A stretch of 64,000 bases of DNA, from NCBI GenBank assembly GCA_951813565.1, contig OX638351.1, forward strand, positions 704,001 through 768,000, read 5' to 3'. Of this stretch, positions 5,802 through 62,035 are shown one piece after another. Every line of letters starts with the position of its first letter. Within the stretch, counting starts at the first letter, position 1. The stretch comes from an uncultured Poribacteria bacterium. GTDB lineage: Bacteria; Poribacteria; WGA-4E; WGA-3G. The position numbers were made by a program, and so were the translations under genes. Below the pieces are notes generated by a model. The model was not told the origin of the DNA. It worked only from the letters and a program-made list of their open reading frames with translations, and searched no databases.

Positions 5802-6123
5802 AGGGTTATTTAGTTTTAAGAATTATCAGTTACTGAGTTTTACTGTGAGTTTATATCGTCCGTCGGGTAGCGCTTACGAAACCCGACAAATGCCAAAAAG
5901 CGCACTTGACGTTGATTTGGACATGGTAGTAGGCACGCGCCGCTTTCCGTCCGAAAGCCAAGAAATTACGGCACACGGCGTGTGCCTACTACTTTGCATC
6001 GCACATCTTTTTTGTAAGTTGAGGCTATGGATAGAGTGATAGCGAAACCCGACCACAATGCTGCTATAAAACATTAACGTTTGTGATGAAATACGCCAGA
6101 AAAACCGAAAACTAAATAACCCT
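5802..6123. mobile_element. MITE-like element with AGGGTTATTTAGTTTT terminal inverted repeats, carrying REP hairpins
   Basis: agggttatttagtttt (5802) and aaaactaaataaccct (ends 6123); a related left end recurs at ~24190. Confidence 0.6.
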
Positions 6124-18192: not shown

Positions 18193-18362
18193 TATAGTGA
18201 CCTTTAGAATTAACAGGACATTTTGAGTTGTAGGAGGGAACTCTGATTCCCGACTATCAATGCGTTTTGTCGCGATTCGGAGATCGCTCCCGCCAAATGC
18301 CAAAAGCGCATTTGGCGTTGATTCACAGAAAATGTGCCTCTTTAATTTCAAAGTTCACCATA
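18193..18362. mobile_element. TATAGTG-ended MITE with REP doublet and micro-element insert
   Basis: Imperfect terminal IR; internal gtaggagggaactctgattcccgac...gtcgcgattcggagatcgctcc as at 43483-43543. Confidence 0.55.
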
Positions 18363-19958: not shown

Positions 19959-20281
19959 GCTCCGTAAGTCTATTTGATTTCAACTTTTTAGATTTTTGGA
20001 AGAAAGTAGCGAGCTGGAGGTCGCTCCTACAGTAAGTGTTTGGAATTACTTGAACACTCTGCGCCAGCGAGGTTAGGAAACCTCCAAATCAAGAAATCAA
20101 CGCTACAAATGCCATTTAGGCATTTGGCGGGTATGAATGCCATTTAGGCATTCCCCGCCTACCGGTGTGAATGTAAGAGGCGCAATGAATTGCGCGACTA
20201 CAAACGCACATAAGGATTTGGGGAGTCGCGAGCTGGAGCTCGCTTCTACAGTAAGAGTTTGGAACTTGCGAGGAGATAAAG

Positions 20282-23030: not shown

Positions 23031-23148
23031 ATATAGGCGCGGTTACAAACCGCGCCTACAAAAAGAGTAGACATATAAGAGCAGTTATAAACCGCCCAAT
23101 CAACGCCTTATACGTGTATGGTATTCGGTGCCTACAGAGGTTCACAAA

Positions 23149-25338: not shown

Positions 25339-25889
25339 AAATACTTTCTTGCCTTTGTAGTGCCTCGTGAGCTCCCAATGGTAAGTCCATAGATGAGGGA
25401 CTGTGTTTCCTGTTCTTCTGCGTGGAGGATTGATGTTGCAGCCCCAAATATTACATATTACTTCGATTTCTCACATTTACCTCCGTTGTTTTGATATAAC
25501 CTATCTTTAGAGAGATTGTTCATTGGTAGGTATTGTTTAAGTAATACCACTTCTATATGATAATAGGACATTATTTCGTAGGTCGGGTAGAAGCGTTAGC
25601 AAAACCCGACTTTTTATGGTGTCTGCCCGTTGCATGGCACGTCCTGCACAGTGGCGGGGCACCAAATCAAGAAATCAACGGTATGAATAACATTTAGTTA
25701 TTCACCGGGTATGAATGCCTTATGGCATTCCCCGGGACCCCGCCCTACAGTGGAAAACGCCGCGTAATCATTGCAAATTGAACCTATGTAACCAAATATT
25801 TACACACCCGTGACAATTTGTCAATTAGAAATGATATGATGATATGGGAAAGTAACTAACCGGAGAATTGAAGGCTACACTAACAAGTC

Positions 25890-29035: not shown

Positions 29036-29848
29036 CTATCTTAGGGACTTTATCTGTCCCCACACAACGCTAACTTTATCCGTAGGGTCTACCGATTGTG
29101 CTTCAGCAAAACGATTTGAAATAAGTTCTGCATATTCGGTTGCGACTTGTTCGTTTCCAGGTATTGCAGTGCCGCAACAAGAGGTATGGAAATTGATAAA
29201 CCATCCCTTCATATCTTCTGTTCGATAAGCAATTGGATCGGCATTTGTGCCATCATCTGCATAACTTTCAAACTCAAAATCATTTTGTTCCAAAACATTA
29301 AGACCTGCTGGACGATTCGAAGTCCATTTTTCGAGAGAAGGTATGTACTTTTTACCGAGCTCTGTCGGAGACACGTTTGCTACACTGGCATTGGTAACGG
29401 TAACCCCAAACACCTTTTGCTGTCCTGCTCCCGCTGCGGTAACTCGTGCATTTGCACCAAAATCCCAAAAATAGTAGAAGGGATAATCTCCAATGAAGCC
29501 ACCGATACCACCATCTCTCAACCATGAATAAATTGGGTCCTCTTTACCTTTATTTTCAAAAATTGTTTCAGGTGTATTTCCCTGTGTAAGAATATAGATG
29601 CCTTTCGGGTTCGCATCCATATATTCTGCTAAACCTTCAGCGTCAACAATTTCCGCAGTCAGTTTTTCATCTTGAAGTTTTTCTACAATTAGTTCTGCTA
29701 ACTGTTGTGCCCCCGCCACCCCACCTGTAATACCTAAGCCAGCGCCATTTTCCATTTTTCCATCGTAAACGACAGCGACATCTTGTCCGAAACTGTAACT
29801 CACGAAAGTTAGAGCGATAATTGATACAAAGCAAAATACCCTTTTCAT
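29036..29848 (-). CDS. Secreted protein with a Poribacteria-type C-terminal motif
   Basis: Signal peptide; C-terminus SVDPTDKVSVVWGQIK; GAGG RBS. Confidence 0.7.
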   Translation of the reverse strand: MKRVFCFVSIIALTFVSYSFGQDVAVVYDGKMENGAGLGITGGVAGAQQLAELIVEKLQDEKLTAEIVDAEGLAEYMDANPKGIYILTQGNTPETIFENKGKEDPIYSWLRDGGIGGFIGDYPFYYFWDFGANARVTAAGAGQQKVFGVTVTNASVANVSPTELGKKYIPSLEKWTSNRPAGLNVLEQNDFEFESYADDGTNADPIAYRTEDMKGWFINFHTSCCGTAIPGNEQVATEYAELISNRFAEAQSVDPTDKVSVVWGQIKSLR

Positions 29849-30071
29849 TGTCCGGTCCTCCTAATTAGGAACTCAAATTGGTTTTAACATTATTGAATCT
29901 TCGCTTGATGATTCAGTATAACACGTTTGGACAGAATATTATAGTAAATTGTGATTCAGCATTCAACGATTCATCTTCAGTTTCTGAAAGAATCGTTGGT
30001 TGTGTAGGTGGATGGGAAGTCGGCAGCGTGTGGATGCTATTTAGGAAATAGGGGCAGATTGGGGACCGCCC

Positions 30072-30397
30072 CATAAGTGTAAACTTAAGAAAAAAATGCT
30101 GGCTCATCTCTTGTGGGAGGGCTTTCTAAGCCCGATTTTGCGAGACTCAAGCTGTTAAATCCAAATCAACGCAGCATGCGCCAAATCAACGCAGCATGCG
30201 CCAAATCAACGGTATGAATGCCATTGAGGCATTTGGCGGGTATGAATGCCTGTTGGCATTCCCCGTCCGGCATGCTGCCAAATCAACGCTGAATGCGCGT
30301 TAGGCATTCAGCCAAATCAACGCAGCATGCGCGTATGGCATGCTGCGGGGTTGAAAACCCTTCCACAAGAAGAAATTTCCTTAAATTGACACCTATG
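30072..30397. mobile_element. IS4-like MITE with a 20-bp TSD, containing a REP doublet and a micro-element array
   Basis: IRs CATAAGTGTAAACTTAAG / CTTAAATTGACACCTATG; flanks GGGCAGATTGG(G/A)GACCGCCC. Confidence 0.75.
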
Positions 30398-30439
30398 GGG
30401 CAGATTGGAGACCGCCCCTATAAAACGTCAAATCGGATT

Positions 30440-31051
30440 TTAGGCGTTTGCCGCATAGATTTCGTTGACCCGTGCCCAGTTAACGATATTTTTCCACGCC
30501 TCAACGTAGTCTGGACGACGGTTCTGATAGTTCAGATAATATGCGTGTTCCCATACGTCAATTCCAAGAAGAGGTGTATGTCCCTGCATAATTGGACTAT
30601 CTTGATTTGCTGTGGAGTAAATCTCCAATCCATTATCACCGATAACAAGCCATGCCCAACCTGAACCGAAACGTTTGGTTGCAGCAGTAGTGAATTCTTC
30701 ATCCGCAGCTTCAAGGGATCCAAAAGCAGATTTTAGCGCAGCTGCGAGCTCTCCACCGGGGTCGCCACCGTTGCCTTTGGGGCACATGACTGACCAGAAA
30801 AGTGAATGGTTTGCATGCCCGCCACCGTTGTTAATGACTGCCTGCCGAATGTCTTCTGGTACTTGATCAATATTTCTAAGCAGTTCTTCAACATCTAATT
30901 TAGCGAGGTCGTCATGACCTTCTAATGCAGCATTCAGATTGTTTACATAACCTTGATGGTGTTTTCCGTGATGGATTTCCATCGTTTGTGTGTCAATATG
31001 TGGTTCCAATGCATCGTGTGCATAAGGGAGTCTTGGTAATGTGTGTGCCAT
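30440..31051 (-). CDS. sodA: Mn/Fe superoxide dismutase
   Basis: [29 protein letters not shown]. Confidence 0.95.
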
Positions 31052-41895: not shown

Positions 41896-42142
41896 GGATA
41901 TGTAAAGTTTTTGTAGAAATCCGCACAACTCCTATTGTAGGGGCGGGTCTCCGGGGAATGCCGAAAGGCATTCGGACCGTTGATTTGGTGCCTGCCCGTT
42001 GCATGGCACGTCCTGCGCAGTGGCGGGGCACCAAATCAACGGTATGAATGCCTTATGGCATTCCCCGGGACCCCGCCCTACAGTGGGAAACGCCGCGTAA
42101 TCATTGCAAATTGAACCTGTATAACCAAATATTTACACACCC
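41896..42142. mobile_element. MITE with ends like the ISKra4-like IS; partial copy at ~25618-25809
   Basis: GGATATGTAAAGTTTTTG...ATTTACACACCC versus IS end GGGTGTGTAAAGTTTTT. Confidence 0.7.
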
Positions 42143-61580: not shown

Positions 61581-61754
61581 CATTACTACAACTTATCTCA
61601 TAAACCACTTGTAGGGCGAGGTCCCTGTGCCTCGCCATGTCTTGAGGATGGAACATCGGGCGGGCACAGGGACCCGCCCCTACAATAGAAGTGAACTTCA
61701 GTGCGAACAATGAGTAAACTCAAAAATCGGATTTATGAGATACACTCTACTATT

Positions 61755-62035
61755 ATAACCTAAGTTTCTACGGACAAGATTTTAAGTTAGCAAACACTGC
61801 TTTTTACTGAAAAAACAAGGCTTTTTCGCTGATTCTTATGTTTTTTGTTCTAAATCGGTAGCAACTTGGGTTATTATAACCTAAGTTGCTACGGACAAGA
61901 TTTCAAGTTAGCAAATACTGCTTTTTACTGAAAAAACAAGGCTTTTTCGCTGATTCTGGATGTTTTTTGTTCTAAATCGGGGTTAGAAACCCCTCCTACA
62001 AGAGCATTTGCGAAATAGGTGGCAACTTGGGTTAT
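61755..62035. mobile_element. Two tandem MITE copies with ATAACCTAAGTTGCTAC / GTAGCAACTTGGGTTAT ends
   Basis: 61755-61874 and 61876-62035 are near-identical; the second carries an extra REP. Confidence 0.75.

Follow-up and report, generated by a model that had tools for sequence, protein, structure and literature searches.

Tagged hairpin units of 34 to 36 bp, stacked inside a Poribacteria REP, are likely among the smallest mobile DNAs

RESULTS AND DISCUSSION

A real stack of very small repeat units interrupts a REP next to sodA in an uncultured Poribacteria bacterium, a sponge symbiont, within a window of 64,000 nucleotides (the whole stretch of DNA analyzed here) taken from a genome assembled as one contig. 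The units belong to a non-coding family built of an AATCAAC tag and a covarying 9-bp hairpin. Strong indirect evidence indicates that this family is mobile, which likely places its units among the smallest mobile DNAs, and a borrowed single-strand transposase probably moves them.

Anatomy of the array and its host REP

The insert is 185 bp long (30162-30346) and contains two plain units of 34 bp, a further unit interrupted by a nested hybrid, and a duplicated half-unit. Five heads, all exact copies of CAAATCAAC, start at 30162, 30182, 30202, 30279, and 30313, just where the original prediction had placed them; the 64-kb window holds 10 matches to this sequence versus 1.32 expected. All parts of the array lie on the plus strand. 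The first is an orphan half-unit (30162..30181), comprising a head and an A-type 5' arm, which is a 20-bp tandem duplicate of the next 20 bases and is unique in the genome in this tandem form. It is followed by the 5' half of an A-type unit (30182..30201), which is split at the C^G of its own loop and resumes with its 3' half at 30265..30278. Between the two halves lies the nested hybrid (30202..30264), made of a 36-bp head and hairpin (30202-30237), an extra G (30238), and a head-less D-type hairpin (30239-30264), apparently a recombinant of the composite at 20085-20155. A complete 34-bp C-type unit (30279..30312), in tandem at the preceding tail, and a complete 34-bp A-type unit (30313..30346), with 18 identical copies in the genome, close the array. 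The small unit size predicted earlier holds, with actual lengths of 34-36 bp in place of about 33-35 bp, and so does the tandem and nested stacking, although only 30279-30312 and 30313-30346 are plain units. A different hairpin had been proposed after each head, but three of the five heads share the same arm. Folded as single-stranded DNA, the array region has a z of -4.9, and Rfam returned no match for 29800-30500 at E values up to 1. More units and composites of the same family lie in the window at approximately 5886-5919, 18291-18323, 20085-20155, 23096-23127, 25663-25733, 41953-41987, and 42032-42066.

Deletion of 30162-30346 joins AAATC (30157..30161, plus strand, with the C at 30161 as the host base before the cut) to GGGGTTGAAAACCC and restores a REP at C^G, as anticipated. 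The remainder of this interrupted GTGG-tagged REP spans 30347..30370 (minus strand, with the G at 30347 as the host base after the cut), and the restored element is the right member of an inverted GTGG-REP pair whose left member, also host sequence, lies at 30109..30141 (plus strand). Its claimed match to a REP near 61973 is found in the empty comparator at 61974..62003 (minus strand), but the two are paralogues and not identical, differing by three substitutions and one gap over 30 columns. A direct repeat of approximately 118 bp, read by eye, just precedes this comparator in the window (about 61750-61990). Empty sites in paralogous REPs, expected if the array is an insertion, do exist: among 50 left-flank paralogues in the genome, 27 are empty at the exact C^G of the array, 20 are filled at the same base, and 3 are otherwise arranged. 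By eye, 25 of the 27 empty paralogues carry a reverse-oriented unit at a second site of the same REP, so that hosts and units have partly spread together and the copies are not independent events.

The REP pair is enclosed by an outer inverted-repeat module (left arm, 30073..30092, plus strand; right arm, 30377..30396, minus strand) close to sodA (30440-31051, minus strand). Around this module, at 30048-30421, the hairpin found 3' of sodA, likely the sodA terminator, is duplicated over about 22-25 bp, with a left copy (30048..30072) and a right copy (30397..30421), both on the plus strand; in close relatives it is single. The outer module looks like the product of a separate insertion process that duplicates its host hairpin, and two related loci (L012 and L017) carry the same module at the same sodA hairpin with different inner REPs. 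The array itself is absent from the 29 relatives' sodA loci examined, 12 of them syntenic. The close syntenic loci L015, L019, and L020 have a single hairpin without the whole REP module, and locus L021 carries family units within another REP.

Sequencing reads support most of the array. Both unique array flanks were found in all four of the four sequencing runs. An exact contig piece at about single-copy depth (X8, 30193-30246) covers the genome-unique hybrid, and two further pieces at similar depth (X9, 30331-30420, and X5, 30331-30392) link the last unit to the unique right flank. Among the pieces listed, none spans the whole array or the 20-bp duplication, which is therefore unconfirmed.

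A genus-wide family of tagged hairpins

The genome holds 539 simple units in about 470 clusters (457-487 depending on the search pattern), and CAAATCAACG occurs 550 times. The family is a short intergenic hairpin in high copy, with a single cluster inside an open frame that looks like a chance match. Clusters have a single orientation in 419 of 470 cases, and CA-headed runs are single units in 222 of 243. Across 410 unbulged units, stem positions 3, 4, 5, and 8 switch among C-G, A-T, T-A, and G-C pairs; the units surveyed were preselected for at least seven of nine pairs, so that only the variety of pair types counts. Position 2 shows a C-T mismatch in 100 copies, D-type units have a bulge in the stem, and four other heads examined as a control were followed by 0-4 hairpins in 147-393. 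On the head strand, A-C mismatches outnumber G-T mismatches (29 versus 15 distinct, p = 0.049), which weakly favors folding of the opposite strand. Counts by replication strand are 225 versus 194 (p = 0.14), with a GC skew too irregular for assigning replichores.

The unit pattern is present in 24 of 24 genomes of the same genus (“Ca. Poribacteria”) and in none of 16 genomes from three other families; a reversed-pattern control gave 0. In a 21-mer search of genome contigs, 79 of the 80 matches listed are “Ca. Poribacteria” records, and the same unit variants are found in several species. In a viral scan, a loose pattern gave 120 stretches with a single match each.

At least 313 of 470 arrays touch repeats, compared with 36% of non-coding CG sites under a noisy mask. 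Within their hosts, units lie in either orientation and in arms, loops, and tags. Residence inside REPs, as originally described, is correct for the window array but is not a general rule, since hosts are not only REPs. In genome G001, most sampled hosts are short tandem repeats without a GTAG tag, and a non-palindromic short tandem repeat family (GGATTAC[G/A]C-like; L194-L204) is the main host of D-type units. Turning to relatives, both flanks are adjacent in this genome for 24 of 196 units, all in repeats, and no cross-species presence/absence at a single-copy site was confirmed among these 196. We also observe a sister unit in this genome (G000) with the head AATCAT(G) and about 90 hairpins, mostly inside main-unit stems and joined at AAT, and present in addition at C^G as a double-headed palindrome of 41 nt.

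Junctions and array growth

With the tail defined without reference to the flank, the unit ends in C in 539 of 563 cases, and what follows is G (407), a new head (117), or A/C (15). In the CA class (333 units), C precedes the cut in 326 of 333 and G follows it in 266 of 271; position -2 is rarely C, +2 is never A, and the remaining context is variable, including -3 to -6. These junctions are not random, and they conform to the C^G joint without duplication that had been proposed. Removal of CA runs restores an 18-mer present elsewhere at the exact cut in 135 of 243 cases, while shifted cuts give 0 apart from 12 and 1 cases that also match exactly, and 108 of 243 match nowhere. As a complete account of the family, however, the proposal falls short, because the G-headed class (161 of 539 units) differs: it joins at G^G or A^GG, often with an extra G and with host bases lost, commonly 1-5.

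A resolvable empty paralogue is available for 166 of 219 isolated sites, some best-match empties being clearly wrong paralogues. The commonest outcomes at these 166 sites are clean gains of TG (36), CA (32), and CG (16), followed by CA with loss of an A (14) and by G with an extra G and a replaced A (10); head-side losses of TA, GTA, and CTGTA occur too. Of the two joints, that on the tail side is fixed and that on the head side loose.

Tandem followers are CA-headed in 117 of 117 cases and no G-head follows a tail, which bears out the idea that arrays grow at the C^G regenerated by the tail, and the growth is confined to that end. The C^G of the loop is the other internal insertion site. A nested 49-nt block recurs 32 times in 21 left contexts, so composites travel, or are converted, as blocks. 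Runs of identical 35-bp units, nine at G000:C1:3536220 and seven at L200 (G023), are compatible with slippage or rolling amplification. Double-headed units were considered as fill-in products and this was rejected, as the 17 cases look by eye like nested reverse insertions or inverted-copy deletions. D-type units have C at -3 in 67 of 94 contexts (the C directly before the head carries no weight, having been part of the search pattern). IS608-type elements follow a four-base guide rule, which failed to predict this preference.

Search for a mobilizing enzyme

Y1_Tnp is the most widespread candidate enzyme, found in 36 of 40 genomes. The RAYT model matches in 35 of 40, 25 of them over the cut-off, and this genome has two intact RAYTs (G000:C1 near 242,000 and 5,071,000); tblastn found no further Y1 genes. 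We examined 59 distinct Y1 loci (10 + 30 + 20, one shared), which are part of the Y1 loci of the genus, and at none of them is the unit the flanking repeat family of the Y1 gene, i.e., none forms a cognate REPtron. Most RAYT loci have a tagged REP family of their own at their flanks, with units within 330 nt at 3 of 30, and 20 further Y1 loci have no units. In this genome, units lie just upstream of 2 of 10 Y1 loci, inside host REPs, as do the unit copies near Y1 genes in the few cases viewed in context. Several RAYT clades occur in Poribacteria, most flanked by their own REP arrays (L164-L193 and L325-L344), which makes for an unusually rich set of REPtrons.

IscB is present in 14 of 40 genomes, and resident TnpB hits number 51, from several families with near-identical right ends. 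The earlier proposal looked to TnpA(Y1), RAYT, IscB, or TnpB genes flanked by the unit hairpin, and the examined loci contain none. An ATGC...GCAT stem is never found at the 51 TnpB right ends, 5 IS605 TnpA left ends, and 19 IscB loci, and where IS605/IscB ends are discernible they carry CCCC...GGGG-type hairpins, which gives no support to the suggested descent from IS200/IS605 (PATE) ends. The guide rule of IS605 predicts pre-hairpin bases that change with the target, and at IS605 left ends in G000 these bases covary with the apparent target (AAAC with TTAG and AAAT with TTAA). No autonomous parent element was found among the 234 heads without a near tail, as far as listed, among 41 doubly flanked ORFs, whose N-termini were read by eye and among which only cas1 stood out, or among the ORFs beside 22 of the 24 largest arrays.

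A proposed RAYT-type nuclease acting in trans

We favor, tentatively and with slightly less than even confidence, movement of the unit as single-stranded DNA by a REP-associated Y1 HUH nuclease of the RAYT type acting in trans. This reading is suggested by the tag-plus-hairpin build, by the dinucleotide target without duplication, and by the rule given in excerpts of PMC8266576, under which AACG would match C^G, since base 4 pairs with the base before the cut and base 3 with the base after; the same excerpts describe RAYT retargeting. Excerpts of PMC3333891 report that specificity is limited to a dinucleotide, that cuts fall as far as 400 nt from the REP, and that tandem assembly takes place in vitro, and such long-range, low-specificity cleavage and tandem assembly also argue for a RAYT. 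By our own parse, the opposite strand of G-class targets of the GT[A]GG type gives CC^T, the canonical RAYT site.

A RAYT-type enzyme would bind the unit in its folded state, and the AACG tetranucleotide just 5' of the stem may serve as a guide through which C^G is chosen. Units would thereby enter C^G sites without duplicating the target, whether in other repeats, in their own loop, or at their own tail. Because tail and target share C^G, a single specificity would suffice for the precise tail-side joint. Either a second cut or host repair could complete the head-side joint, which would account for the CA, TG, CG, or G prefixes and for the small deletions in the host. Slippage or rolling amplification at a later stage is the likely origin of long identical runs and of the 20-bp duplicate.

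Several observations count against a RAYT. The excerpts of PMC8266576 include no C^G cleavage by a RAYT, the C^CA junction on the head side does not correspond to C^G, and most hosts sampled in G001 lack GTAG. If the opposite strand folds, AACG is not 5' of the stem, which speaks weakly against the guide. The missing cognate REPtron also weighs against it. Unit copy number does not track RAYT presence (15 versus 10 genomes, p = 0.44, kin not being independent), and two genomes with no Y1 match have many unit matches, namely, 167 in G023 (one contig) and 76 in G001. The canonical RAYT-flanking REP pattern, however, gives 75 matches in G023, 145 in G010, and 1 in G001; as two genomes without a detectable RAYT keep 75 and 145 REP matches, RAYT absence alone does not decide against the RAYT reading.

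A more ambitious version, which we regard as rather doubtful, makes the family a third tagged-palindrome class: a 34-bp, one-hairpin, gene-less REP parasite whose own AACG guide would retarget a borrowed RAYT from C^T to C^G, rebuilding its landing site and carrying nested cargo of more than 100 bp. If true, no natural substrate shown for HUH transposition would be shorter than the unit, which would also amount to a minimal programmable module for single-strand insertion.

Alternative explanations

The main rival, unlikely in our judgment though a serious one, is host template switching without a dedicated transposase. Here synthesis would be primed on a donor unit from a host C, at a nick or a stalled 3' end, with the switch made by host polymerase or repair proteins, and would return to the target via 1-3 nt of microhomology; tag and stem would be retained through a conserved host protein or the fold, either of which would define where switching occurs. 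It accounts for the extra G at sites where GG is common to donor and target, for the graded head-side loss of A, TA, GTA, or CTGTA, and for the 49-nt nested block in its many left contexts, and it suits the presence of units in every genome of the genus tested without a universal mobile enzyme. Homologies of 1-2 bases nevertheless explain poorly how C^G insertions could be exact to the base in hundreds of cases, and the explanation names no host factor. Template switching explains the loose class better, and the exact class worse, than the RAYT reading.

That the units are terminal-only PATEs, the fused ends of IS200/IS605 or ISC elements moved by a resident IS605 TnpA, was the view of the original prediction and strikes us as improbable. 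This genome does contain an intact TnpA and many TnpB elements, excerpts of PMC3119063 offer 52-bp single-hairpin PATEs that may move as a precedent, and some ISC elements begin with 5'-CA without duplication (excerpts of PMC4810608). The ends of resident elements, however, have another stem and another spacing, the target is a dinucleotide in a weakly defined context and not a 4-5-mer, and neither the tail-less heads, as far as listed, nor the doubly flanked ORFs include a long head-to-tail element.

Target-primed reverse transcription usually leaves a fixed 3' joint and a variable 5' joint, a footprint that matches the fixed and variable joints observed here. Retroposition of a short processed RNA (tag plus hairpin), with a reverse transcriptase priming at a nicked C, could also draw on two RT genes in this genome; these, however, are a Drt4 and a CRISPR-adjacent RT, and RT is present in only 18 of 40 genomes and lacking in the copy-rich G006, G012, G017, G023, and G001. 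Together with the missing poly(A) tail and duplication, and with G-U-type pairs that are not favored on the head strand, this makes retroposition a little more improbable still. At loci L042 and L043 we observe a Drt4 antiviral RT and a group II-like RT adjoining a CRISPR-like repeat and cas1.

We judge it very improbable that the units were integrated by Cas1-Cas2, by a bridge recombinase of the IS110 type, by a Y2 transposase of the IS91 type, or by an integron integrase. The unit has a spacer-like length and one cas1 region has units on both sides, but Cas1 occurs in 29 of 40 genomes, is absent from G006, G016, and G017, and the insertions show no target duplication. In that region, cas1 and a neighboring ORF lie between two inward-facing units (G000:C1:1201868-1203938, L345), probably by chance. 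The tag ends in AAC and a G follows the stem, a layout that we take to be loosely like an integron attC; integron integrase over the cut-off was found in 0 of 5 genomes, as was IS110 with a working control, and IS91 Y2 was found in 0 of 40 with a silent control. RT, Cas1, IS110, and IS91 all fit worse than a RAYT-type enzyme. Lastly, an assembly artifact or simple tandem slippage of local sequence, the former raised in the original prediction, has in its favor only the genome-unique 20-bp duplicate, which is unseen among the read pieces listed, and is next to negligible for an array with unique junctions present in independent runs and for a family dispersed over 85 distinct CA-class contexts and 25 genomes.

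Comparison with known systems

REP junctions are usually ambiguous, which obscures how REP-sized repeats spread. Hundreds of junctions in the family described here are base-exact and have matching empty sites; the family also offers two junction classes and nested histories, and it sets a low size bound for apparent mobility. The RAYT reading makes a single sharp prediction, that an AACG guide directs a C^G cut. Within the scope of titles and abstract openings on Poribacteria repeats and small elements, subscription papers lying outside it, the unit family is undescribed.

The SDRs of Nostoc and relatives are reportedly 21-27 nt long and self-nesting, and we know of no enzyme that moves them. 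Nostoc SDR1-8 are likewise very small dispersed units with precise insertion inside a palindrome. If SDRs are defined as dispersed, shorter than about 40 nt, with exact empty sites and self-nesting, the Poribacteria units share all of these features. They differ, in a likeness drawn from description, by occurring in a different phylum, by their fixed unpaired tag and 9-bp stem, and by targeting C^G and not HIP1, into which SDR5 is inserted (excerpts of PMC4390886).

Tagged REPs and REPINs likewise combine an unpaired 5' tag with a hairpin, measure 20-50 nt, and have hundreds of intergenic copies, and CGTC-tagged REPs, like the Poribacteria units at the loci examined, flank no transposase gene (excerpts of PMC3733652, PMC8266576, PMC3333891, and PMC3116915). 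A GTAG-REP, however, has GT[AG]G 5' of the hairpin foot, whereas the 539 units have AATCAAC(G), neither GTAG nor CGTC; a REP with its RAYT forms a REPtron, in contrast to 0 of 59 Y1 loci here; and a REPIN moves as an inverted doublet, whereas the Poribacteria unit is single (222 of 243 CA runs, with 419 of 470 clusters in one orientation). Unlike REPs, the units also land inside REPs and inside themselves.

PATEs, as do the Poribacteria units, lack terminal inverted repeats and target duplication, and the 52-bp terminal-only PATE shares their single-hairpin form (excerpts of PMC3119063). The units are shorter, at 34-36 bp, and have no parent IS605 element with matching ends; IS200-IS605 derivatives have a fixed 4-5 nt target, whereas here only C^G is fixed. 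According to the same excerpts, SMR-A of Haloquadratum walsbyi targets palindromes of other mobile elements but, unlike the Poribacteria units, is about 110 bp long with terminal inverted repeats. The supplements on PATE ends (PMC3119063) and atypical REPs (PMC6006769) may bear on this comparison. By its defining features the family is not a GTAG-REP, a REPIN, or a PATE: in the way it works it resembles an SDR or a terminal-only PATE, and in its build a tagged REP.
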